Positions 27,893 through 53,631 of a stretch of DNA of 64,000 nucleotides are shown here, one piece after another (position 1 is the stretch's first letter; each line of letters begins with the position of its first letter). Source of the DNA: Thermomicrobiales bacterium (lineage in GTDB: Bacteria > Chloroflexota > Chloroflexia > Thermomicrobiales > UBA6265); NCBI GenBank assembly GCA_023957015.1, contig JAMLHR010000001.1, positions 28,841 through 92,840 on the forward strand, in the 5' to 3' direction. The translations under genes and the position numbers were made by a program. Below the pieces are notes generated by a model. It worked only from the letters and a program-made list of their open reading frames with translations. It did not search any database and had not been told where the DNA came from.

Positions 27893-29512
27893 ATGACCGG
27901 TGGACAGGCATTGGTCAGAACATTGCGTGCCTATGACGTACACACGATCTTCGCCCTACCCGGCGTGCAACTGGATGGCGCATTCGATGCCCTCTACGAC
28001 GAGCAGAAGGCTGGCAATATCCGCATCATCCATACGCGCCATGAGCAGGGTGCGGCCTATATGGCCGATGGCTACGCGCGGGTGACCGGCGAGATGGGTG
28101 TCTGCATGGTGGTACCTGGCCCCGGATTGCTGAATGCATCCGCCGCACTCTCGACAGCATATGCCTGCAACCAACCCGTCCTCTGCGTTACCGGGCAGAT
28201 CAAGAGCGATGCGATCGAGGCTGGCTATGGCCTTCTTCACGAGATTCCGAACCAGCTGGGTATGGTCCGGAGCGTCACCAAATACGCCGAGCGCGCCGTC
28301 ACTCCAGACGCTATTCCGGGCGCGATCCATAATGCCATCAATGCGATGTGGGACGGTCGGATTCGACCCGTGGAAGTCGAGGTCCCGCCGGACACGTTCT
28401 TCGCCACCGGTGAGGTCGACCTCGGTACCCTGGCTGAAGGTCGATCACCGCAGGATGTCGATCCGGAAGCGATCGCATCCGCCGCCAAAATACTGGGCCA
28501 CGCCGAACGACCAGTCATCTTCGTCGGAGGTGGCATCCACGGTTCCGAAGCCTGGGATGAACTGAAAGAGATTGCCGAGTTGTTGCAGGCGGCCGTTGTA
28601 CCCACCCAAAACGGAAAGGGCGCGCTCAGCGATCACCATTACCTCAGCCAATCGCAGTTCGCGGGCAAGGATCTGATGGCCGAGGCGGATGTCGTCTTCG
28701 CAATTGGTACCCGTTTCAGCGATGCCACCACCTATGCCTGGGGGATCAAACCCGGCAAAACCTTCATCCAGCTCGATATCGATGCCGATATGGTAGGCAA
28801 GACCTTCCCCACCACTGTCGGCCTGGTCGGCGATGCCAAACGCGGATTGGCGGCGCTGATTGACGCAATCCCGGCACACAATCGCGCCCGCTCCTCGCGC
28901 GAAGCGGAGATGTTGGCGCGCAAGGCTGTTGCAGAGGAGGCCATGGCCAGCGTGCAACCGCAGGCAGGATTCGCCAAAGCCATTCGCCAGGCGTTGCCGG
29001 AGGATGGCATCTTCGTCGGCGAGATGACCCAGCTCGGGTATTACAGCAATATGACCATGCCGGTTTACCAGCCGCGCACCTACCTCACACCTGGTTATCA
29101 GGGCACACTGGGTTGGGGCTTCCCAACCTCCCTCGGTGTCAAGGTTGGCGCGCCAGACAAGGTGGTATTCAGCATTAACGGCGATGGCGGTTTCGGCTTC
29201 TGCCTGAACGAACTCGCTACCCAAGCCCAGCATGGTATCGCCAGTATCACCCTGGTGTTCAACGATGGCGCGTTTGGCAATGTCAAACGCATCCAGCAGG
29301 AGACATTGAGCGGACGCACGATCGCCAGCGATCTCCGCAATCCGGACTATGTGAAGCTGGCCGAGGCGTTCGGTGTCACCGGTCGCCGCACGGATTCAGC
29401 GGATGGACTCGCGATCCATTTGGACGAAGCGATCAAGGCGAACGAACCGACACTGGTCGAGATTCAGGTGCCACCAATGCCAAATCCGTGGAAGGCATTG
29501 GGGCTGCGGTAA
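27893..29512 (+). CDS. thiamine-pyrophosphate-dependent enzyme (acetolactate synthase large-subunit family)
   Basis: N-terminal MTGGQALVRTLRAYDVHTIFALPGV. TPP motif INGDGGFGFCLNELAT...VFNDGAFGN. The start could be GTG 27869. Confidence 0.8.
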   Translation: MTGGQALVRTLRAYDVHTIFALPGVQLDGAFDALYDEQKAGNIRIIHTRHEQGAAYMADGYARVTGEMGVCMVVPGPGLLNASAALSTAYACNQPVLCVTGQIKSDAIEAGYGLLHEIPNQLGMVRSVTKYAERAVTPDAIPGAIHNAINAMWDGRIRPVEVEVPPDTFFATGEVDLGTLAEGRSPQDVDPEAIASAAKILGHAERPVIFVGGGIHGSEAWDELKEIAELLQAAVVPTQNGKGALSDHHYLSQSQFAGKDLMAEADVVFAIGTRFSDATTYAWGIKPGKTFIQLDIDADMVGKTFPTTVGLVGDAKRGLAALIDAIPAHNRARSSREAEMLARKAVAEEAMASVQPQAGFAKAIRQALPEDGIFVGEMTQLGYYSNMTMPVYQPRTYLTPGYQGTLGWGFPTSLGVKVGAPDKVVFSINGDGGFGFCLNELATQAQHGIASITLVFNDGAFGNVKRIQQETLSGRTIASDLRNPDYVKLAEAFGVTGRRTDSADGLAIHLDEAIKANEPTLVEIQVPPMPNPWKALGLR

Positions 29513-41756: not shown

Positions 41757-43336
41757 CTTAAGTTTGGCACTCTGAGGAGGCGAGGGTTCTGGTGAGAGCC
41801 GTCGTCATCGTGGGACATGTCTGGATTGTGCGAGTCTGAGGCGTATCGTTGGCGTTAGATGGCATCCGCGACCGCCAACAGCACCTTCAAGGCGGTATTT
41901 TCCGTGGGGTTGGTCCGGAACCACGCACAATGGGGTGTTACCTGCCGGGGTGGTGCGGTCATCAGCTCTTCCCGGAGTTGCATCGTCAGGTCACGCAATA
42001 TCCAGCGACGCTGGCGGTACCAGCGCCGGGAATGCCGAATGGACGGCGGACACCTGACTCCCGTCAGGATGAGGACCGCGTACACCCAGACCACCCACTG
42101 CGTCACGGTTACTGCACCTCGGGCCGACCACTGTTGCTGGTCACCCAGTCCCCAGCCACTCTTCAGTTCCCGATGCATTACCTCCACTTCCCACCGTTGC
42201 CACACCCAGAGCGCCAGCTGTTCCACCGGATAGGGCAGCTCCCATCCGTGTGAAGTTTGGCGGGCATTGACCAGGAAGTGCATCATGTCACGCGATCGTC
42301 GTGACGATCCACGCCCACGTCCAATCCCGGCAATCGTGATGAGCATCAGGGGATGGTCGGCTGCCTTCTTGATCACCCAGGGACCGGTCACCTGGATCCG
42401 TAGATGACGGTCTTTGCCCCGCACCCGAATGACACATGTCTGCCACCCGGAATGCTCCTGTCCCTGTACAGGTGTGAGACCGCGGTCTCCATAGAGCCGC
42501 TTCCGTCCACGTCGGGGTGGTTCGTTCGGATCCGGGAGATGGTACAGCGCCTGATTCTTCGCACAGCGCGCAATCCCGGTCGTGGCCGGTGGCAGTGCAT
42601 TCCAGGTTCCGCACCACTATAGGCACCATCCCCCGTCACCACGAGGGGACGATCCCGTTCACCCAGCGCGTCCATCGCCTCCCGGATGGACCGCACACCT
42701 CCAGCGCGGCCTGCCATTCCGTCTGAGGAGGATGATCTGCCCATGGCTGCGAGGTCGCAGGATGGAGCTGGTGCAAACACCAGCGGGATGGCACGACTGT
42801 CTCCTTCCGCGGTGGGTGGTGTCAAAACTCGTCGTCCCTTCCCAGCGCTGGGCATGATGGATGCCAGGCTCCCAGGGTGGTGTCCGCGGGGATCGTCCCC
42901 ACCCCGATCCCGCATCTTCCGCCCGGTCCGCGGGAGCTGAGTGCCATCGACCACCACCACCACCGGATCATGACGTACACAGCCGCAGCCAGTGGGCGAT
43001 AACCTGACGCTGCAACGCGCTGATCGCAACCCGTGGGGCGGAGAACACCCGGTAGGTCGCGGTCCAGTCACGCGATGCCATGCCCATGAACGAGGAGCAT
43101 GCGTGAGACCATGCTCCGGCCGGTCACCAGAACCAGACCAACGGTCAGCACCAGGAGGCGCAGCGCAGCTCTGGTACAGGCATGTGACGGAGCATGGTGG
43201 CACAGGTAGTAACAAATCAGGTCGAGAACGTGGTAGGATCGGGCATCACAGACCTCTACGGATCATGAAGAGGCCCTTAGCCTACGGAGTCTGTGACTTC
43301 TTGACAATCCCCTGTACGAAAACTGCCAAAGTTAAG
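41757..43336 (-). mobile_element. IS4-superfamily (IS701/IS1634-like) insertion sequence, about 1.58 kb, decayed
   Basis: Terminal inverted repeats CTTAAGTTTGGCAC (left) and CTTAACTTTGGCAG (right, reverse complement). An internal DDE transposase is split over several frames. Confidence 0.8.
41855..43215 (-). pseudogene. DDE transposase, at least 4 frameshifts
   Basis: Pieces lie in different minus frames: GLVLVTGRSMVSRMLLVHGHGIA; DWTATYRVFSAPRVAISALQRQVIAHW; VVVVDGTQLPRTGRKM (first D); LVVTGDGAYSG (second D); QRWEVEVMHRELKSGWGLG (E/K region of IS4-type enzymes). Confidence 0.75.
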
Positions 43337-45231: not shown

Positions 45232-45342
45232 CTAAATCTCAGGCTGGGTGCGATTGGTTCGACTGTCGGCACCGAAGCGCACGGCCAGAACATCAAGCAG
45301 AATCAGCGAAGCGACAAGAGAAACGACGATCAACAGTTCCAT
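45232..45342 (-). CDS. 36-aa hydrophobic small protein (not in the ORF track)
   Basis: AGGAG 9 nt upstream of the ATG (complement of 45340-45342). My translation: MELLIVVSLVASLILLDVLAVRFGADSRTNRTQPEI*. Confidence 0.4.
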   Translation of the reverse strand: MELLIVVSLVASLILLDVLAVRFGADSRTNRTQPEI

Positions 45343-45505: not shown

Positions 45506-46252
45506 GTGCGTCGACCTGCTTATCTCCTCTCCTTGCTAGCCCTGGTGTTCCTGTTCGTCGCATGCGGCGGTGAAGACACGCCAACCCCGGCGGCGACGGT
45601 CGGTCCTCCGACAGCGGAATCGGGTCAGATGATGGTTGCTGATTTGGTCGCAATGGCCGATGCAGCCTGGCCGAATGTGGAATCCATGCGCACGACATCC
45701 CGCAGCAGCGTAATCACGACTGCGGGTGATCAACCGTTCAACGGCAGTGTTCAAGATTGGAACCGTAACGGGAACCGCCATATCATCGAGTTCCAGGATG
45801 GTACCGCGGTCAACGAACAGATCTATGCCGATGGTGTGATCTATATGCGCGGTGTCTTCGTCAGCGCGGCGGTTGCACCGGGGTTGAATGTCAACACCTG
45901 GATCATCGTCGATAGCGTTGCTATCGACCCGGACTCACAAATCGGTGTTCAGGTTACCTATCTGACCAGAGAACAAGCGAATCCATATGGTCTGCTGTCA
46001 GATGATCTCCTCCAGACTCCGGTGCACGAATCCGGTCGGGTCACCGTTGGCGCCCGCAGCTGCATGCTCTACACCTTCGGTGATGAAGCCAATACCGGTA
46101 ACGAGATACGGTATGAGATCGCAATCGATAGCGGTGGTCTCCCCTGTCAGGTGGTCCAACGCGCCGGAGATGCACAGAACAGCACCCTCTACGAGTTCAA
46201 CAGCGGGATTACGATCGAGGCACCACTGGATGATGCAACACCGGAGCCATAA
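45506..46252 (+). CDS. lipoprotein of unknown function
   Basis: GTG start. Signal plus lipobox MRRPAYLLSLLALVFLFVAC-GGEDTP. No recognisable catalytic motif. Confidence 0.65.
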   Translation: MRRPAYLLSLLALVFLFVACGGEDTPTPAATVGPPTAESGQMMVADLVAMADAAWPNVESMRTTSRSSVITTAGDQPFNGSVQDWNRNGNRHIIEFQDGTAVNEQIYADGVIYMRGVFVSAAVAPGLNVNTWIIVDSVAIDPDSQIGVQVTYLTREQANPYGLLSDDLLQTPVHESGRVTVGARSCMLYTFGDEANTGNEIRYEIAIDSGGLPCQVVQRAGDAQNSTLYEFNSGITIEAPLDDATPEP

Positions 46253-46312
46253 CGCAGGATTTCGGCGGCGAGATGCGATGTAGAGGTAGAGAATGGTCTA
46301 CGGAGGGCATGT

Positions 46313-47428
46313 ATGACCACCCAATCTACCAAGCGAATACCCACTGCCGCCGAGCGTACCGATATCCTGCGCACTCTGACTATCTGGACACAGAACCAGA
46401 CGGCCGCTGAGGACCTAACCCAACAGACCATGTTGGAAGCCTGGAAAAGCGAGCGGCAGCCTCCAGACCCCGAATGGCGGCCATGGCTCTTCGGTATTGC
46501 CCGCAACATGTTCTACCGCTGGCGTCGCGATCTGGCACGAGATCTCCGACGCACGATCGCGATGCCGGAAACTGATGCGATCTTCGAAGCTACCGCCAGC
46601 GATATCGACCTGGATATCGAACTCGAGCGCAATGAGATAGCCGCCCTACTGCATGATCTGCTCGATAGGTTGCCGAAAGAGACACGCGACATCCTGCTGC
46701 ATAAGTACATCAATGATCTGCCACAGGCCGCGATCGCGGAGAGTCTGGGCTTGCATGAGAAAGCAGTGGAAGGTCGTTTGTATCGGGGTAAGAGACTCCT
46801 CCGCGATCAGTTGTTGATGTTCCGCGCTGATGCGGCGGTGGAGCTAGGAATCGTGACAGAGAGCAACACCTGGCAGCAGACCGCTCATTGGTGTCCACGC
46901 TGTGGAGATCAGCAACTCCTGGCCCGATGGAGCGACAAGGGTACGCTTCGGTTCGAGTGTCCTTCCTGCCTGGATGGGGCTCGCACAGAGGTGTATGTTG
47001 GTGATGAAATCCAATCCCGCACCTTCAACCGTCGCCCCACATACTCGAGAGTTATGAAGTTCTTCAATCTCCAATCGGATGCTTGTGTGCGTACCAACCC
47101 CTCTCTCCCAGTGACATGCCCGGCCTGCGACAGCACAATGCGGTATACGGCCCAACGCTTTAACGAGCCTCTGGCATTCGAAGCAGCCTTCTTCTGCAAC
47201 TCCTGTGACGCGTACTTCCGGTTCGAAAACCTGCTGGAATGCGGTATCGATGCAAAAGCTGGGGTTGCGTTTCGTCTTCAGCATCCTCGCGTAGCCGCAT
47301 CCCCGCCGACGCTTATCAACTATCAGGGAATGGAGGCAATCCAGGTACGCTGGATTGCTCGCGACGGTTCAGCGGAGTTGATAGCGTTCCATGATCCCCA
47401 GTTGGGGTATCTCATCGAGACCGTTTAG
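46313..47428 (+). CDS. ECF-type sigma-70 factor fused to a C-terminal double zinc-ribbon domain
   Basis: Region 2 (AEDLTQQTMLEAW...WLFGIARNMFYRWRRD). Region 4 (LPQAAIAESLGLHEKAVEGRLYRGKRLLRDQL). Then CPRC..x17..CPSC and CPAC..x21..CNSC. No TM segment. Confidence 0.8.
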   Translation: MTTQSTKRIPTAAERTDILRTLTIWTQNQTAAEDLTQQTMLEAWKSERQPPDPEWRPWLFGIARNMFYRWRRDLARDLRRTIAMPETDAIFEATASDIDLDIELERNEIAALLHDLLDRLPKETRDILLHKYINDLPQAAIAESLGLHEKAVEGRLYRGKRLLRDQLLMFRADAAVELGIVTESNTWQQTAHWCPRCGDQQLLARWSDKGTLRFECPSCLDGARTEVYVGDEIQSRTFNRRPTYSRVMKFFNLQSDACVRTNPSLPVTCPACDSTMRYTAQRFNEPLAFEAAFFCNSCDAYFRFENLLECGIDAKAGVAFRLQHPRVAASPPTLINYQGMEAIQVRWIARDGSAELIAFHDPQLGYLIETV

Positions 47429-47498
47429 CGCATCAGACTACCTCGTTCATCACTCTTCATCCTCATCGCGCAGATGAGATCTTAGCAAGGCTGCCCGT

Positions 47499-48713
47499 AT
47501 GCATAGCGTCAAAACCACAATCTCCGGAGATATTCGCTGGTACTGGAGCAACGCGGTCGGTACGAGCTTTGCCGATAGTCTCATCAGTTTCGCCCTGATA
47601 CTGCTGGTGCTGAACGTTACCGGGTCCCTTTCCATGATGGCCGCCATGTCCATCACAATGGCTCTACCAAACATCGTCATCGGGTTGTTTAGTTCCGTTT
47701 GGGTGGATCGCTGGCATCCGCGACGCGTAGTCCAAATCAGTCAACTTTGTCGCGCTGGTGTTGTCTGCTGTTTCATACTGGTCGATCACTTCGATGCCAT
47801 CTGGTTGGCATTTGTTATTGCCTTCGCACAGTCGGTTATCGGCACATTCGATGATCCCTCTCGCGGCAAGATCGTGCGGGCACTCACGACTGATGAGAAC
47901 AGACTCTCGGTCAACTCGTTCACGCAGACAGGACGATCCATCGCCAGTGTGGCGGGCACGACATGTGGTGGTGTCATCGTGGTCTATACGCCCGATTCAT
48001 TTGGCGTCGTCTTCCTATTGGCGGCTGCCTGTTACGCCGCGATGGGGTGGATCGTGGCCCATATCTCGGTGGATGCAACCACCGAGCACATTGAACCCGG
48101 AAGATCCGGAAACTATTGGCAGGAACTTCGGGTGGGCCTGAAGGCGGTCCGGGAGTCTCCGGCACTCATCGCTGTGCTGGTCGCAGCTATGACCACAACT
48201 ATCGGCGCAGCTGCGGCAACGGTGCTCCTTACCCCTCTGCTTGTCAACGAACTCGGTATCTCACCTGCCTGGTTTGGTATCGTCGAAGGTAGCCAGGCTG
48301 TCGGTAGCGTCGCCGTCTCCCTCGTGATAGGAGTGATCGGATCCCGATTGAATGTGAATCGATTGATCGTCTGGGCACTCGTTGGCACCGGAATCGTCAT
48401 CGCTCTCATCGGCAGCGCTCCGAACATCTGGACACTGCTCATCTGCATGTTGGCGGTTGGTATCACCATCACACCTGTTGGGTCCTCGTTCTCCACGATC
48501 TTGCAGTCGCATGCCGATCCCACGGTGATCGGTCGCGTTGGAGCCGTTCTGAATATGATCCTGGAGCCGTTTTCGATACTGGGCATGGCAGGGGCGGGCC
48601 TGATGGCGGAGCGTGTCGGTATTCAACCGGTCTACTGGCTCGCCGGTCTTCTCTGCGTAATAGGCGGTATCTCGGCTTCGGTTCTTCTTGGAGGAGAATC
48701 CGAGGTGGCGTAG
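47499..48713 (+). CDS. MFS transporter
   Basis: 12 predicted hydrophobic segments in 404 aa. The DRWHPRR loop after TM2 is typical of MFS. Confidence 0.8.
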   Translation: MHSVKTTISGDIRWYWSNAVGTSFADSLISFALILLVLNVTGSLSMMAAMSITMALPNIVIGLFSSVWVDRWHPRRVVQISQLCRAGVVCCFILVDHFDAIWLAFVIAFAQSVIGTFDDPSRGKIVRALTTDENRLSVNSFTQTGRSIASVAGTTCGGVIVVYTPDSFGVVFLLAAACYAAMGWIVAHISVDATTEHIEPGRSGNYWQELRVGLKAVRESPALIAVLVAAMTTTIGAAAATVLLTPLLVNELGISPAWFGIVEGSQAVGSVAVSLVIGVIGSRLNVNRLIVWALVGTGIVIALIGSAPNIWTLLICMLAVGITITPVGSSFSTILQSHADPTVIGRVGAVLNMILEPFSILGMAGAGLMAERVGIQPVYWLAGLLCVIGGISASVLLGGESEVA

Positions 48714-48869
48714 TTTAGGTCAGTGTTCCAGTCCCAACAAGAGTGGTACAACCAACTCATTGCGAGAATCTGCACATCGAATCGCGATCACATGCGGTCC
48801 GCGCCAGGATGAAGGATTTCGTCGCGTTAGTGCGATGTATAGGTAGACGATGGTAAACGGAGGAATCAC

Positions 48870-50027
48870 GTGACCAAAACATCTACCAAACGAATACCTA
48901 CCCCCGGCGAGCGCGATGATATCCTGCGCACCCTGACAATCTGGACGCAAAACCCAACTGTCGCCGAAGATTTGACCCAGCAGACGCTGATCGAAGCCTG
49001 GAAAAGCGAACGGCAGCCTCCAGACCCCGAATGGCGACCATGGCTGTTCGGTATCGCTCGTAACGTGTTCTACCGCTGGCGTCGTGATCTCGCACGAGAT
49101 CTCCGACGCACGATCGCGATGCCGGAGACTGATGCATTCCTTGAGGCATCGGGAACTGAGATTGATCTCCATCAGGCCGAGATGATCTCCCTTCTTCAGG
49201 AAATGATTGACGAACTTCCTGAAGACACACGGCGAGCGTTACTGCTGAAATACGTTGAGGGACTACCTCAAACCGAAGTGGCCGACCGCCTCGGTGTCGG
49301 TGAGAAAGCGCTGGAAAGTCGCCTCTTACGCGGGAAACGCAAACTTCGCGACCACATCATTATGAACCGCCCCGATACCGCAATCGATCTGGGGCTTGTG
49401 ATCGACACGGAGGTATGGCACACAACCAACATCTGGTGCCTTTCCTGCGGCCGCGAACGGTTGGAAGCTCGCTGGTTTGAGGACGGCACAGTTCGGTACG
49501 ACTGCCCAAGCTGTCATAACGACTGGTTCATGCCAGACGAACGCACCATTCAAACATCGCATCGATTCTTGAGCGGAATCCCCAGAAATCCACCACCATT
49601 CACACCGCTACACCGCCTTATCTCCGAACAATCGGGACTGATACTCCATCGCAGCGGTCCGAGCGGTACACCGTGCCCGCACTGCGGACGAACGATCGAA
49701 CCCGTGCGGTGGTCACCACCGGAGAGCTCCTCTGTCCCAATCGAACCCGAGATACAACTAGACGTAATCTACACTTGCCGGGCTTGCGCCTCCGTCCTGA
49801 AGTTCTCCTATCTGCCCGGGTCAGGAATCTGGACCGGGCAAGGAAACACGTTCACCGCCAAGCACCCTCAGGTGGAGATGCTGAAACCTGTCGCGACCGA
49901 ATGGCAGGGCCGACCTGCAATCCGCACAACCTGGAAAAGCCTCAACGATCCTGGCGAGTTTACCTGTTGGGTCGATACCGAGATGCTGACACTGCTAGAT
50001 ATCATGGTCGACGGCGAGTTGCAGTGA
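48870..50027 (+). CDS. ECF-type sigma-70 factor fused to a C-terminal double zinc-ribbon domain (paralog)
   Basis: GTG start after GGAGG. The N-terminal ~96 aa are nearly identical to the 46313 gene. The zinc ribbons are CLSC...CPSC and CPHC...CRAC. Confidence 0.8.
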   Translation: MTKTSTKRIPTPGERDDILRTLTIWTQNPTVAEDLTQQTLIEAWKSERQPPDPEWRPWLFGIARNVFYRWRRDLARDLRRTIAMPETDAFLEASGTEIDLHQAEMISLLQEMIDELPEDTRRALLLKYVEGLPQTEVADRLGVGEKALESRLLRGKRKLRDHIIMNRPDTAIDLGLVIDTEVWHTTNIWCLSCGRERLEARWFEDGTVRYDCPSCHNDWFMPDERTIQTSHRFLSGIPRNPPPFTPLHRLISEQSGLILHRSGPSGTPCPHCGRTIEPVRWSPPESSSVPIEPEIQLDVIYTCRACASVLKFSYLPGSGIWTGQGNTFTAKHPQVEMLKPVATEWQGRPAIRTTWKSLNDPGEFTCWVDTEMLTLLDIMVDGELQ

Positions 50028-51844
50028 GTAGCGGTTCCAACTCGCTTGTCGCGATTCAACCCTTGCTCGGTGAGAGCAAGCGGTCGCTCCTCTCACGCGT
50101 GCGATCGTTCATATGGCTCATTGGCAAACTCGCCGAGACAATACCACTGCCCTTCATCTGCTGGCTCGGCATGAATATCCTGCAAGGTTCGATGCCTCCC
50201 TTCCAAATCTGGGCAAGCGGGAAGTTGGTCAACGCGATTCAGGTGCGCATTGATGGCCATCAGGCCAATCCGTGGCTGTGGGCGATACTGATGGCCTCTG
50301 GTCTCGCTGGCAGTCGACTCCTGGCTCCAACTAAAAGTTGGTGTGAAGCTGCAATCCATGAGCAAGGAGTACCCGCGGTTCACAGCCGCGTGCTGGAACG
50401 GACAACCGAGGTTGATCTGGCTTTGCTAGAGTATCAGGCGTTCCATGATGTTGCGCTAAGGATCGCTGAACAGGCGAACCAAACCCTTAAGGAAACGCTC
50501 AAAACGCTTGGTGACATCCTTACGAATGTCATACCGATTATCGGTGCTATCCTGATCATCTCCCGTATCCACTGGCTTCTGGTTGCGGCCCTGTTTCTTC
50601 CCCTCATTCCGCTACTGGCGGTTTCCCTGCGACAGGGCGACCTGGTTTGGAGTGCCCTCAGCAAACAGACTCGGGATCGACGAATTGCCCAGTACATCGC
50701 CGCCCGATTTAGCGACCGCCAAGCAGCGAAGGAGATTCGGCTATTTGGTTTGGCTGATGAACTCATTCAACGATGGGAGGTTCATTTCACGGCCACGCGA
50801 AAAGAGATGCGAGGCAAGATCACTCGTGCATTTCTCAGGTTGCAACTGGGCGGAACGGGTGCAGATGTGATCAGCTACGCCGTGCTTATCTGGGCGATCA
50901 CGGGCAGGTTTGTTCACCTCACCGCAGCTGATATCACGGTGCTGATGGGTGCATTCATGACGATTGGCAACCAAAGCTTCCAACTCCAACAGGCAACGTT
51001 GGACATCGGCAAACATGGCGGCTTCGCTGCTGATGTGCGAGCATTTCTCAACCTTCCAGCCCCGTGCGCTGTGATACCCACCTCGGCGACAATCCCTCCC
51101 CAGCCCCTATCGATCACGCTGGATCACGTCAGCTTCGCCTATCCCGGAGCCACGGCTAATGTGATTGACGATGTGAATCTCACGATCCCGGTGGGTCAGA
51201 CGCTGGCGATTGTCGGCGAAAATGGCGCGGGCAAAACAACGCTGCTCAAGCTCATCCTGGGACTGTACCAGCCCGACTCAGGCCGGATATTCTTCGGCGA
51301 CCGCGACCTGCAATCTATCCCGATCGTTGAACGCCAGGCGCTGATGGCAGCGGTTTTTCAGAGCTTTTCTCGTTACCCGGAAAGCATTCTTGAGAACATC
51401 ACCATACCAAAAGGCCACGACGCTGCAGAACTGGAGCGCGTGATCTCCGAAGCGGGCCTGGACAGGATGATTGCCGATGTCCCCGACGGGATAGAGACCA
51501 TTCTCAGCCCGGATCTCGGAGGTATCGACCTCAGTGGCGGCCAATGGCAGCGACTGGCAATCGCGCGGGCAGCATATCGAAATGCGACGATTCTTGCACT
51601 TGATGAACCTACAGCTGCTCTTGATCCCTTGGCAGAAGTGGACATCTTCAAGCGTTTCGCCCAATTGAGTGACAACCGCACCACTATCCTCATCAGCCAT
51701 CGTCTCGGCATGACCAGGCTCGCTGATCGCATCATTGTTATTGAGCACGGCAAGATCACCGAAGATGGAACTCACGCTCAATTATTACGTAACAACCATC
51801 ATTACGCGGAACTCTGGGAGATGCAGAGCCGATGGTATCGATAG
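50024..51844 (+). CDS. ABC exporter, fused permease-ATPase (half transporter 1)
   Basis: GTG 50024 overlaps the sigma stop (GTGA). Six TM segments, then GENGAGKTTLLKLILG, LSGGQWQRLAIARA and ILALDEPTAALD. The ORF-track start at 49673 lies inside the sigma gene. Confidence 0.8.
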   Translation: MSSGSNSLVAIQPLLGESKRSLLSRVRSFIWLIGKLAETIPLPFICWLGMNILQGSMPPFQIWASGKLVNAIQVRIDGHQANPWLWAILMASGLAGSRLLAPTKSWCEAAIHEQGVPAVHSRVLERTTEVDLALLEYQAFHDVALRIAEQANQTLKETLKTLGDILTNVIPIIGAILIISRIHWLLVAALFLPLIPLLAVSLRQGDLVWSALSKQTRDRRIAQYIAARFSDRQAAKEIRLFGLADELIQRWEVHFTATRKEMRGKITRAFLRLQLGGTGADVISYAVLIWAITGRFVHLTAADITVLMGAFMTIGNQSFQLQQATLDIGKHGGFAADVRAFLNLPAPCAVIPTSATIPPQPLSITLDHVSFAYPGATANVIDDVNLTIPVGQTLAIVGENGAGKTTLLKLILGLYQPDSGRIFFGDRDLQSIPIVERQALMAAVFQSFSRYPESILENITIPKGHDAAELERVISEAGLDRMIADVPDGIETILSPDLGGIDLSGGQWQRLAIARAAYRNATILALDEPTAALDPLAEVDIFKRFAQLSDNRTTILISHRLGMTRLADRIIVIEHGKITEDGTHAQLLRNNHHYAELWEMQSRWYR

Positions 51845-53631
51845 TTTCTGTCGCTCAGAAGCACCCCTCCAACTGGCGCGGAATCGTTCAACTGCTTGGC
51901 GGTATTGGACGTCGCAATCCTCTGCCGCTGGTATCACTTACGCTGCTTACCATTATCGGCAATACGCGCACGGGTCTCTATGTGTTGTCACTTGGCGGCA
52001 TTACCGAGGCGCTAATCGTTCAGAACCGACGTCAGGCAATCATGTGGGCATTGGTATTTCTGGGTGCTGGCGTTATGGAGCAACTCTACTGGCCGTTCCG
52101 CAACCATCTTCGCTCGATCGTTGTGGATGATGCCGGTGTCTTACTGCAAAAGCGAGTGCTGCTCAAATCGGCGCAGGTTCCCCTGGAACACTACGAACAC
52201 GCGCCGTTCTTCAATGCTCTTACCCGCGCCAACGATGATCTTGGTGGACGATCTGGCACTATTATCTCGCTCGTTTTCGATCTTCTACAGGTCCTGATTC
52301 TGTTTGCCAGCATACTGGCGCCGGTATGGTTCATCGACGCTCGTATCGTGGGAATGGTTGTTATCGGCTGCATCCCTCTCTTTATCAGCACCTGGCACAC
52401 TGCGCACACCTACTATGAGGTCAAGACTCGCAACGCTCCCATCGAACTCTATGCCAGCAAACTCAGTGACCTCATTCTGCAACGCGATGCCGCAGCTGAG
52501 ATTCGCCTGTTCGGAACGGGACCAAGGCTGGTACAGCGGTGGCTGGGAGCCCGTAACAACGTTGCCGAGCAGAGTATCCGGGCAGTGGGGATTGTTACCC
52601 GCTCACAGTTTGCAGGAGAGATCTTCGTCGCCATGAGCATGGCGGCGGCCATCACGCTGCTGGTGCACAACCTGCTGAACGGTCGTGCTCCGCTGGGTTC
52701 GCTGGTAGCCGTGGTCTTCGCCATAGTTTGGAGCATAGATATGGTGGGCGGATTGGCGTATGTCACCCGCGCTGTGCGCGAGAACGGTGCATTCCTCAAT
52801 GATGTCTTTGTGTTTGAGGAAGAGGCCACGAGATTTCAGCGTCCGGCACCGGCAATCGCTTCCCGCTCAACCGGACCGATGAAGGTTCGTCTGAAAAATG
52901 CGAGCTTCCGCTATCCGGATACCGATCGCGATGTTGTACACAACCTTAACCTGGAGATCGCGGCTGGCGAACATATCGCTCTCCTGGGGGAGAACGGTGC
53001 TGGCAAGAGCACATTGGTACGACTGATTGCCGGGCTCTATACACCCACTATCGGCCGTGTTTACCAAGATGACAGCATCGCGACGGATAACCGCGACGAT
53101 ATCGGGGCCGTGTTCCAGGATTTCGAGCGCTGGCAACTGCCACTCCGTGACAATGTCGGATTCGGAAACATCAACCAAATCAGTGATGATACCGCCATCC
53201 ACCGCGCGTTGGAGAAGTCAGATCTTGGGAACCTGCCGCAGGAACTCGAAGATGGATTGGATACCTGGCTCGGACGCGAGTTTGGGGAGCGAGATCTGAG
53301 TGGTGGCCAGTGGCAACGCCTCGCCATCGCCCGTGCATTCTTCCGGAATGCCCGCCTGCTGATCCTGGATGAACCCACTGCGGCCCTCGATCCGCTCGCC
53401 GAACAACGACTCTTCGAGCGCTTCCGCGAACTCGCCGCGGGAAAGACGGCAATCACTATCAGTCACCGTATCGGACCTGCGCGATCGGCGGATCGAATTC
53501 TGGTGATGGACAGAGGTCAAGTCATCGAGGACGGTACGCATGAATCACTCATGAACCGAAATGGTATGTATGCATCCATGTTCCGATCCCAGCAAGAGTG
53601 GTACAACCATGACAGTGGAGAAACAGACTAG
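51832..53631 (+). CDS. ABC exporter, fused permease-ATPase (half transporter 2)
   Basis: Overlaps the previous gene by 13 nt. GENGAGKSTLVRLIAG, LSGGQWQRLAIARAF, LLILDEPTAALD. Confidence 0.85.
   Translation: MVSIVSVAQKHPSNWRGIVQLLGGIGRRNPLPLVSLTLLTIIGNTRTGLYVLSLGGITEALIVQNRRQAIMWALVFLGAGVMEQLYWPFRNHLRSIVVDDAGVLLQKRVLLKSAQVPLEHYEHAPFFNALTRANDDLGGRSGTIISLVFDLLQVLILFASILAPVWFIDARIVGMVVIGCIPLFISTWHTAHTYYEVKTRNAPIELYASKLSDLILQRDAAAEIRLFGTGPRLVQRWLGARNNVAEQSIRAVGIVTRSQFAGEIFVAMSMAAAITLLVHNLLNGRAPLGSLVAVVFAIVWSIDMVGGLAYVTRAVRENGAFLNDVFVFEEEATRFQRPAPAIASRSTGPMKVRLKNASFRYPDTDRDVVHNLNLEIAAGEHIALLGENGAGKSTLVRLIAGLYTPTIGRVYQDDSIATDNRDDIGAVFQDFERWQLPLRDNVGFGNINQISDDTAIHRALEKSDLGNLPQELEDGLDTWLGREFGERDLSGGQWQRLAIARAFFRNARLLILDEPTAALDPLAEQRLFERFRELAAGKTAITISHRIGPARSADRILVMDRGQVIEDGTHESLMNRNGMYASMFRSQQEWYNHDSGETD

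Follow-up and report, generated by a model that had tools for sequence, protein, structure and literature searches.

Tandem ECF sigma factor genes with a fused zinc-ribbon extension and linked exporters in a Thermomicrobiales genome, and their probable origin by cassette exchange

How do two neighbouring sigma factor genes come to share a promoter-like motif and much the same first 92 codons, diverge beyond that point and lead into two different classes of export pump? The question is raised by a stretch of 64,000 nt (positions 28,841 to 92,840 of contig JAMLHR010000001.1, assembly GCA_023957015.1), hereafter the window, to which all coordinates without a locus label refer. It comes from an uncultured member of the Thermomicrobiales (Chloroflexota) with a genome of 2.84 Mb in 104 contigs. 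The two genes, sigma 1 and sigma 2, encode extracytoplasmic function (ECF) sigma factors that carry a soluble extension of about 200 residues. Sigma 1 is followed by an exporter of the major facilitator superfamily (MFS) and sigma 2 by an ATP-binding cassette (ABC) exporter. The explanation that is favoured here, with moderate confidence as a whole, is that each protein is a sigma factor with its regulator fused in cis and with an exporter operon of its own, and that the twins arose by cassette exchange. The features concerned are the following.

46256..46282, plus strand: promoter-like bipartite motif of sigma 1, AGGATTTC-N11-GCGATGTA; putative -35 GGATTT, putative -10 within GCGATGTAGA
46302-46306, plus strand: Shine-Dalgarno sequence GGAGG of sigma 1, 3' of the promoter-like motif
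46313..47428, plus strand: sigma 1, 371 aa, cassette type T1 (open reading frame, Pfam, TIGR02937); sigma-2 at about aa 12-78, disordered linker 79-98, sigma-4 100-170, extension 170-371
46313..46579, plus strand: constant N-block of sigma 1, gene nt 1-267, 83% nt identity with 48870-49136; concerted evolution with the paralogue over gene nt 197-266
46820..47425, plus strand: extension of sigma 1; two zinc ribbons, a helix and a C-terminal alpha/beta lobe as modelled by AlphaFold2
46892-46903 and 46958-46969, plus strand: zinc ribbon 1 of sigma 1, C194/C197 and C216/C219
47117-47128 and 47195-47206, plus strand: zinc ribbon 2 of sigma 1, C269/C272 and C295/C298
47499..48713, plus strand: MFS exporter, 404 aa, MFS_1 and MFS_3/EntS-Mef-like, the T1 cargo
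48724..48754, plus strand: non-coding remnant of the second ABC gene (its 3' end), 28/31 identical to 53579-53609
48813..48839, plus strand: promoter-like motif of sigma 2, AGGATTTC-N11-GCGATGTA
48859-48863, plus strand: Shine-Dalgarno sequence GGAGG of sigma 2
48870..50027, plus strand: sigma 2, 385 aa, GTG start, cassette type T2
49437-49448, 49503-49514, 49674-49685 and 49776-49787, plus strand: CxxC motifs of sigma 2
50024..51844, plus strand: ABC exporter subunit 1, 606 aa, half-transporter with a transmembrane and a nucleotide-binding domain (TMD-NBD), MsbA/ABCB-like; its start overlaps the sigma 2 stop
51832..53631, plus strand: ABC exporter subunit 2, 599 aa, with a 13-nt overlap with subunit 1

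Both genes encode ECF (group 4) sigma-70 factors. An earlier note on this DNA had read the two open reading frames as sigma region 2 and region 4 followed by a soluble extension, and this layout holds at 46313-47428 and 48870-50027. Pfam places Sigma70_r2 at aa 18-76 and Sigma70_r4_2 at aa 112-163 in sigma 1 and 108-159 in sigma 2. With TIGR02937, the model of the ECF superfamily, sigma 1 scores 76.3 bits and sigma 2 scores 72.0 bits at a cut-off of 42.9. None of the NCBIfam subfamily or equivalog models reached its cut-off for either protein. A Foldseek search of the full-length sigma 1 model against the PDB returned sigma cores only, with the ECF sigmas SigL, SigH, AlgU and SigW as top matches. 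Past the end of sigma-4 (near aa 168 of sigma 1 and aa 164 of sigma 2), the chains continue for 203 and 221 residues, and nothing above the Pfam cut-off was found in the last 200 or so residues of either protein. The note was also right that both lack a transmembrane segment, as the maximum of the 19-residue Kyte-Doolittle mean is 0.78 and 0.99 in the two sigmas versus 2.31 in the MFS protein.

Sigma 1 and sigma 2 are 45% identical over the whole protein. Codons 1-92 show 87% aa and 83% nt identity; beyond codon 92 the twins share 34% of their residues, with 50% in the linker and sigma-4 and 27-29% in the extension. A recount of the differences over the first 96 codons, put earlier at about 14, came to 15. 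The repeat is also visible at the nucleotide level as a direct repeat of 298 nt, 81% identical and far above chance. The 57 nt upstream had been described as nearly identical. Shared blocks are indeed present (AGGATTTCG, GTGCGATGTA, AGGTAGA, ATGGT and ACGGAGG), but only 39 of the 57 positions agree overall (68%), so the description was overstated. The recognition helix of sigma-4 is alike in the twins, reading EKAVEGRLYRGKR in sigma 1 and EKALESRLLRGKR in sigma 2.

Related loci share one gene order: parA and parB come first, then a minus-strand gene of 36 aa, a gene for a lipoprotein-like product of about 250 aa, the sigma and pump genes, SIS_2, and lastly a phosphoribosyltransferase gene and proC. 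What occupies the sigma and pump position is listed here, T1, T2 and T3 being the cassette types.

L013/L014 (genome G008 of the same genus): T2 sigma and two ABC genes
L015/L016: T1 sigma, MFS and two ABC genes, no second sigma
L017, L018 and L020: T1 sigma and MFS
L019: T3 sigma and one ABC gene
L025 (second assembly): T1 sigma and MFS, then T2, window-like; the contig ends inside sigma 2

Comparison of the twins with these relatives indicates that the two halves of the genes have separate histories. The extension of sigma 2 is 79-83% identical to that of its T2 orthologues (79% for P0003, the orthologue in G008) versus 27% to that of sigma 1. In the N-block the relation is reversed: identity is 87% between the two window copies, versus 73-78% between each copy and its orthologues in L013, L015 and L020. 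The same is seen between P0003 (T2) and P0237 (T1), with an identity of 93% over the N-block and of 31% over the extension. The proportion of synonymous differences (pS) between the twins is 0.46 in the N-block (0.31-0.52) versus about 0.76 elsewhere, where it is saturated (about 0.7-0.9). The lower value suggests that the shared block is younger than the rest, but not recent. In maximum-likelihood trees, the C-terminal part yields well-supported T1, T2 and T3 clades, and the N-block yields three lineage clusters, each of which mixes T1 and T2. By the approximately unbiased (AU) test, monophyly of T1 or of T2 is rejected for the N-block (p = 2e-4; 0.002 and 0.013 when P0237 is left out), and the lineage groupings are rejected for the C-terminal part (p ~1e-44).

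The position of the boundary can be read from pairs of loci. L013 (T2 with ABC) and L020 (T1 with MFS) are 96-100% identical at the nucleotide level over the region that runs from parB up to and including nt 234 of the sigma gene; nt 1-234 of that gene contain a single mismatch. From nt 235 onwards, identity is 60%, dropping to 40%. In the window pair, the boundary lies at nt 267. Since the two breakpoints differ, the events were independent, and the crossovers lie at codons 78-90, the end of sigma-2. A four-sequence comparison that included L025 gave 51 sites with an orthology pattern and three with a concerted pattern, all of the latter at nt 204-228, and the tract of 70 nt at nt 197-266 of the sigma gene holds no orthology-pattern site. 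This confinement suggests a short gene-conversion tract beside the boundary and not a wholesale ongoing homogenisation.

Near-identical N-termini would also be expected if sigma-2 were simply under stronger purifying selection, with neither recombination nor conversion involved. Sigma-2 is the most conserved region of the family, EWRPWLFGIARNVFYRWRR is almost invariant across lineages, and the N-blocks are 48-59% identical even to those of distant members. However, synonymous divergence drops in the block as well, the N-block tree follows lineage with type monophyly rejected by the AU test, and the non-coding upstream motif is duplicated together with the block. The step at nt 235 between L013 and L020, where nt identity falls from 99% to 60%, and the limitation of the concerted sites to nt 204-228 are equally difficult to explain in this way, and selection alone is considered extremely unlikely. 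The mosaic instead stems from recombination, not from constraint alone. The main process is cassette replacement with a crossover within the sigma-2 coding region, visible among relatives as alternative alleles at a single chromosomal locus; ongoing homogenisation plays a minor part. The alternatives of the earlier note, gene conversion of, or constraint on, the promoter and the N-terminus, stand to the extent that recombination and a separate history of this part are found; conversion itself is minor beside cassette replacement. A literature search for natural chimeric ECF sigma factors found nothing relevant.

Traces of such exchanges may also be seen outside the sigma genes. A non-coding copy of the last 30 nt or so of the second ABC gene follows the MFS gene at 48724-48754 and in L017, a locus that has no ABC genes. 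It is best read as the scar of an ancient replacement of a sigma-ABC-ABC set by a sigma-MFS cassette.

Two further junctions were observed among the relatives. At L015:10415-10513 (L016:7619-7717), there is a chimeric open reading frame of 32 aa composed of the first 10 or so codons of the SIS gene (MATYREYFRR) and the last 22 or so codons of a T2 sigma gene (VHVWIDTETHVLLDFMINGEIR*), the stop of which overlaps the ABC start as in the window. This frame is a deletion or illegitimate-recombination scar that left the two ABC genes behind a T1 sigma and its MFS gene. The protein P0187 has a T2-type extension (55-61% identical to other T2 extensions) and a sigma-4 (aa 97-168) that resembles T3 (62-73% identical) as much as or more than T2 (65-71%). 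This is a hint that a further recombination boundary separates sigma-4 from the extension.

The pumps are tightly linked to the sigma genes. Sigma 1 is followed after a gap of 70 nt by the MFS_1/MFS_3 gene, and the GTG start of ABC subunit 1 lies across the sigma 2 stop (GTGA at 50024-50027), an overlap of 4 nt that is also called for the orthologue in L014. The earlier assignment of an MFS transporter to sigma 1 and of a GTGA-coupled heterodimeric ABC exporter to sigma 2 was thus confirmed. ABC_tran is found in both ABC subunits, ABC_membrane is weak in subunit 2, and MsbA-type models align to about residues 100-600 of both. The cargo of sigma 2 is predicted to be a type IV (ABCB-like) heterodimeric ABC exporter encoded by two adjacent half-transporter genes. 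None of the equivalog models passed for the pumps, and no thiol- or metal-specific match was obtained with them, the MFS_3 and ABCB types being generic. In 15 of the 19 family loci, the next gene is an MFS_1/MFS_3 or ABC exporter, often with a 4-nt overlap, and these include the non-syntenic L021 and L022 and paralogues in genome G037. An MFS gene lies 3' of the T1-type sigmas in L015, L017, L018, L020 and L025. The pumps diverge along with the sigma types, ABC subunit 1 being 57-59% identical between T3 and T2 and 71-72% within T2. The type of extension is co-inherited with the type of pump, T1 with MFS and both T2 and T3 with ABC. The neighbours of the window sigmas are lipoprotein-like, MFS, ABC and SIS genes, and no match to an anti-sigma domain was found among the neighbours at any inspected locus. 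The statement that a separate anti-sigma gene is missing nearby is borne out for the window and extends to the inspected relatives.

The promoter region points to a very small regulon. The motif has the consensus GCAGGATTTYC-N10-11-GCGATGTA and is followed by GTAGA-like repeats and a GGAGG ribosome-binding site. It is present 5' of the sigma gene in 7/7 aligned syntenic relative loci, and also at the non-syntenic L021, before a family member that is 38-39% identical; with L021, its conservation extends over 9 loci. The strict pattern has just two occurrences in the 2.84-Mb genome, one 5' of each sigma gene. The conserved block, which the earlier note had suggested seeking 5' of the MFS and ABC genes, is not there, and no copies beyond these two were found in the rest of the genome, which argues against a separate regulon. 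A pattern scan revealed no sigma-70-like promoter in front of either the sigma or the pump genes, and a simple terminator scan found none between sigma and pump genes. A conserved motif with two copies is typical of an autoregulated ECF promoter whose regulon is a single operon. Most likely, the sigmas autoregulate their own short operon from a promoter about 55 nt upstream. Given that the twins have the same motif, a near-identical sigma-2 and similar recognition helices, cross-talk between their promoters is predicted. In addition, two or three tandem GTAGA/GTATA-like hexamers were observed 3' of the putative -10 (46278-46292 and 48835-48849; three at L017:1093-1127, approximate positions). 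These could be start-site slippage variants or a binding site.

What, then, is the extension? Every Cys of both proteins lies within it (aa 190 or later), and none is in the sigma core or the linker. The CxxC motifs are as listed in the earlier note: CPRC194, CPSC216, CPAC269 and CNSC295 in sigma 1, and CLSC190, CPSC212, CPHC269 and CRAC303 in sigma 2. A word-indexed homologue search with the extension alone returned 2 proteins only, and an exhaustive profile search was needed. Searched against 1.84 billion representative proteins, a profile built from both extensions yielded at least 339 clusters at 50% identity (E <= 1e-3). Nearly all of them are 360-440 aa long with the domain match at about residues 180-390, which indicates that the architecture of sigma plus extension is the rule. 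In alignments of 63 and 122 members, the eight Cys are invariant or more than 90% conserved, so the Cys pairs on which the earlier proposal leaned are kept across homologues. Conserved to the same degree are the signature W-x2-T-x2-W-C-x2-C-G ahead of the first ribbon and, in the C-terminal lobe, F320, R326, G339 and A342 (sigma 1 numbering).

All family members with a source name belong to the Chloroflexota (Thermomicrobiales and Ktedonobacterales). A two-sequence profile was positive in 21 of 301 sampled Chloroflexota genomes, with up to 4-6 copies each. The distribution is patchy even within the genus of the window, where 3 of 14 genomes carry the family. In G037, a genome of 7.0 Mb from the same order, six copies were observed (L007-L012). 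MFS_3-type pumps stand behind at least three of them and a probable ABC exporter behind one, which amounts to a lineage-specific expansion of sigma-pump modules. A database open reading frame of 547 aa, P0032, runs from sigma-2, sigma-4 and DUF7351 directly into the N-terminal half of an MFS transporter, and is either a genuine fusion of sigma and pump or an artefact, caused by a frameshift or by the gene call. When a standalone form of the domain was sought, most short matches proved to be truncated sigma genes, P0040 and P0056 were ambiguous, and P0120 was rejected as a false positive caused by WWE repeats.

The family has a remote link to a domain of the Pfam database, DUF7351 (PF24042). 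At E < 1e-3, 35 of the 63 members match this model, up to profile positions 4-170 of 177, and P0032 and P0093 exceed its cut-off (32.8 and 33.0 bits versus 31.2). Sigma 2 itself reaches 20.4 bits, below the cut-off and over the first ribbon only, and sigma 1 gives no match. Membership of the window proteins is by transitive homology only, through homologues that reach 33 bits across most of the model. The extension is probably a remote, divergent relative of the uncharacterised DUF7351 superfamily. Among the control genomes, matches to the DUF7351 model were confined to archaea (Haloferax, Methanocaldococcus and Sulfolobus), one of the three above the cut-off. A literature search for DUF7351 found no mention of it.

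Structures were predicted with AlphaFold2 from an alignment of 122 sequences. The extension alone was modelled with a predicted local distance difference test score (pLDDT) of 85 and a predicted template modelling score (pTM) of 0.81. Its elements are, in order, a beta-hairpin ribbon 1, a long helix (aa 244-259), ribbon 2 and an alpha/beta lobe made up of two helices and a five-stranded sheet. A Foldseek search of this model against the PDB and BFVD gave nothing significant, the best E values being 0.02 and 0.008, respectively. The best PDB match was the two-ribbon RNA polymerase I subunit A12.2 (E = 0.02, probability 0.47), and the weak matches reflect a local likeness of single zinc ribbons to A12.2, MqsA and TFS-like proteins. 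A sequence search of the PDB with the extension gave none below E = 0.1, A12.2 being found by hmmsearch at E = 0.11. As modelled, the fold as a whole has no solved relative in the two structure collections searched. Between T1 and T2, the first ribbon is the best conserved part, and the sequence between and after the ribbons is 14-27% identical. The stretch that varies most, aa 225-315 of sigma 1, is the obvious candidate for the seat of specificity.

Put together, the ECF core of sigma-2 and sigma-4 and the cytoplasmic domain of about 200 aa would form a signalling device in one polypeptide. Each sigma would transcribe its own operon, including an exporter of the MFS_3 type for sigma 1 and of the heterodimeric ABCB type for sigma 2. 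The fused domain would act as an in-cis regulatory or sensor module that stands in for an anti-sigma factor. Such a role is suggested by the architecture, the lack of an anti-sigma gene, the private promoter, the pump operon, the co-inheritance of extension and pump and the precedents of ECF41, ECF42 and CorE. Sigma activity would be coupled to a pump-related cue in the cytoplasm, in the simplest case the pump's substrate or else the pump itself, upon which the sigma would induce both itself and the pump. In the simplest view, the zinc sites would be structural. With regard to origin, the promoter and the sigma-2 coding region form a constant socket, and the linker, sigma-4, extension and pump an exchangeable cassette. 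There are at least three cassette types, T1 with MFS and T2 and T3 with ABC pumps, of which T1 and T2 stand in tandem here. Autoregulation, the gating of the sigma by its extension, the direction of that gating and the nature of the signal are all deduced from sequence.

Other roles of the extension have to be weighed against that of a sensor for a pump-related cue. The earlier note proposed the logic of zinc-binding anti-sigma (ZAS) factors, in which the extension would be an in-cis zinc or redox switch, and oxidation or loss of zinc would unfold the domain, free the sigma and induce efflux. The near invariance of the eight Cys in four CxxC motifs, their restriction to the extension and the lack of an anti-sigma gene agree with such a switch. 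However, the motif H-x3-C-x2-C is missing, zf-HC2 is not among the Pfam matches listed up to E = 0.1, and the predicted fold is a beta-ribbon instead of a helical anti-sigma domain. Cys4 zinc ribbons are usually structural, and the divergence of T1 and T2 between and after the ribbons, with the first ribbon conserved, fits a specificity that resides elsewhere. The generic nature of the pumps, which have no thiol- or metal-specific equivalog match, adds to this. Nothing points specifically to zinc or redox logic, which is not supported and is judged unlikely. Alternatively, the extension might sense the transporter, contacting the cytoplasmic face or the NBDs of the cognate pump and reporting transport, comparable to flux-sensing of the Bce type. 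The strict co-inheritance of extension and pump type and the translational coupling of sigma and pump genes would be accounted for, but a single domain would have to dock on two unrelated classes, MFS and ABC, and members without an adjacent pump exist. Transporter sensing is judged quite unlikely. It was also considered that the extension is a constitutive accessory of transcription that receives no signal, its ribbons touching promoter DNA or RNA polymerase as in A12.2/TFIIS, with regulation exerted through expression of the sigma. The sole weak fold and sequence matches are indeed to A12.2 (Foldseek E = 0.02, hmmsearch E = 0.11), the conserved promoter block extends past the -10 into the GTAGA-like repeats, and the extension of ECF42 is needed for activity (PMC8999054). 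The A12.2 matches are not significant, however, and against an unchanging promoter the extension evolves rapidly and according to cassette type, which is unlike a contact module with a constant target. A purely constitutive role is judged very unlikely.

The explanation by a fused cis regulator and cassette exchange is itself opposed by several points. L020, which supplies the sharpest breakpoint, is a single Logan contig of 5.3 kb, for which a chimeric assembly at a shared 31-mer is possible; the tree tests for the mosaic survive its removal. The Ktedonobacterales loci L023 and L024 have neither an exporter next to the sigma gene nor the promoter motif, and the link to pumps is thus true of a subfamily and not of every member. 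Physical linkage by itself could account for extension and pump being inherited together. Finally, the full-length model of sigma 1 has a pLDDT of 83.4 and a pTM of 0.58, with a disordered linker joining sigma-2 to sigma-4. Compared with the pTM of 0.81 for the isolated extension, this means that the extension is not confidently placed on sigma-2 or sigma-4.

The same scheme may be taken one step further. In a plug-and-play locus, cassettes of sigma-4, DUF7351 sensor and pump would be exchanged behind the fixed socket, DUF7351 would be a hitherto unrecognised fold that senses small molecules and directly gates an ECF sigma, and each sensor would switch on both pumps. Such an OR gate of the twins is suggested by their common promoter motif and near-identical sigma-2. 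This extended form is possible but doubtful.

Some observations concern the surroundings of the sigma locus. The minus-strand gene of 36 aa just past parB is found at 45232-45342 in the window and at L014:6877-6987, L015:6872-6982, L017:45-155, L018:5897-6007 and L019:2454-2564. The same length and place in at least five related loci support a real small gene. The gene at 45506-46252 encodes a protein of 248 aa with a lipoprotein-type signal (…LVFLFVAC-GGE) and no Pfam match. Located 5' of the sigma locus, it is 55-60% identical in all syntenic relatives, whichever cassette they carry; it is absent from non-syntenic family loci and is therefore probably not a partner of the sigmas. In the sister assembly GCA_039809955.1 (L025), the order of small genes, parAB and sigma is the same, and there is no transposase-sized gene between the small genes and parA. 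The IS4-like element at 41757-43336 thus appears to be a recent insertion in the genome of the window.

Of all branches of bacterial signal transduction, the one formed by ECF sigma factors with built-in regulatory domains is the least understood, and experimental work in it has been done only on the SnoaL, TPR and CorE types. The present family adds a confidently modelled fold without a solved relative that is widespread in the Chloroflexota. Its near-constant wiring to export pumps makes it a good candidate for a sigma that responds directly to xenobiotics or antibiotics. The locus is also a clear natural case in which recombination has made a mosaic of a sigma factor gene. Within one genus, alternative cassettes of a rear half plus a pump stand behind the same promoter and sigma-2. 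The modularity of sigma-2 and sigma-4 that is exploited in synthetic biology is thus used in nature too, and natural chimeras are at hand for separating the determinants of promoter choice from those of signal specificity.

With respect to known systems, the closest parallels are the ECFs that bear extensions, namely ECF41 (M. tuberculosis SigJ, PDB 5XE7), ECF42 and ECF56 (SigG1, PDB 7QH5), which have been reviewed (PMC8999054) and classified (PMC7826278). Like these, the window sigmas appear to be ECFs with a conserved soluble extension of more than 50 aa after sigma-4 and without a neighbouring anti-sigma gene. The likeness covers the core of sigma-2 and sigma-4, a soluble domain of more than 100 aa, the lack of an anti-sigma gene and a small dedicated operon, and in both the extension is presumed to replace an anti-sigma factor. 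The domains differ, being SnoaL or TPR in the known groups and two Cys4 ribbons with a DUF7351-like alpha/beta lobe here. Moreover, the present family has a link to exporters and is known only from the Chloroflexota. Table 2 of PMC8999054 lists extension-bearing groups, none of them with a representative from the Chloroflexota, and no Chloroflexi group is mentioned in the main text of PMC7826278. Assignment to the SnoaL type (ECF41/ECF56/ECF294/ECF295) was rejected, as there is no SnoaL Pfam match and Foldseek aligns the protein to SigJ 5XE7 with E = 0.066 and a TM score of 0.15-0.19; 5XE7 and 7QH5 align to the full-length model through the sigma core only. Pfam gave no TPR match in the window sigmas either.

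CorE and CorE2 of Myxococcus xanthus (ECF44, now ECF238) likewise have no anti-sigma factor and carry metal-binding Cys at the C-terminus. Their type has a Cys-rich tail of about 20 aa (PMC7826278) and a CxC motif located within the linker joining sigma-2 to sigma-4 (PMC8999054), whereas the extension here is about 200 aa long and predicted to be folded, and the core and linker are free of Cys. A CorE-like identity (ECF238/ECF44) was rejected on these grounds; the NCBIfam SigZ models gave 49-70 bits versus cut-offs of 169-212. The ZAS factors RsrA, RslA, ChrR and RsiW resemble the present proteins in joining zinc to the control of an ECF sigma. They differ in being separate or fused, usually membrane-linked domains with a helical anti-sigma fold and the H-x3-C-x2-C motif. 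A ZAS domain was rejected here, because the first CxxC is preceded by HWC in sigma 1 and IWC in sigma 2, beta-hairpin ribbons are predicted and zf-HC2 does not appear among the Pfam matches listed up to E = 0.1.

A parallel for the mosaic is provided by engineered proteins. The ECF chimeras of Rhodius et al. (2013, Mol Syst Biol), in which sigma-2 and sigma-4 of different factors were joined at the linker, were reportedly functional. The natural breakpoints at codons 78-90 lie at this same place. In contrast to the engineered chimeras, those of the window are natural, and the part that is swapped adds a sensor-like domain and a pump gene. The window sigmas are of a known kind, that of ECF sigmas with a fused regulatory extension, but we could not find a description of this type of extension domain in the literature. 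What is new is the tandem pair, together with a constant module of promoter and sigma-2 behind which sigma-4, sensor and pump are exchanged.

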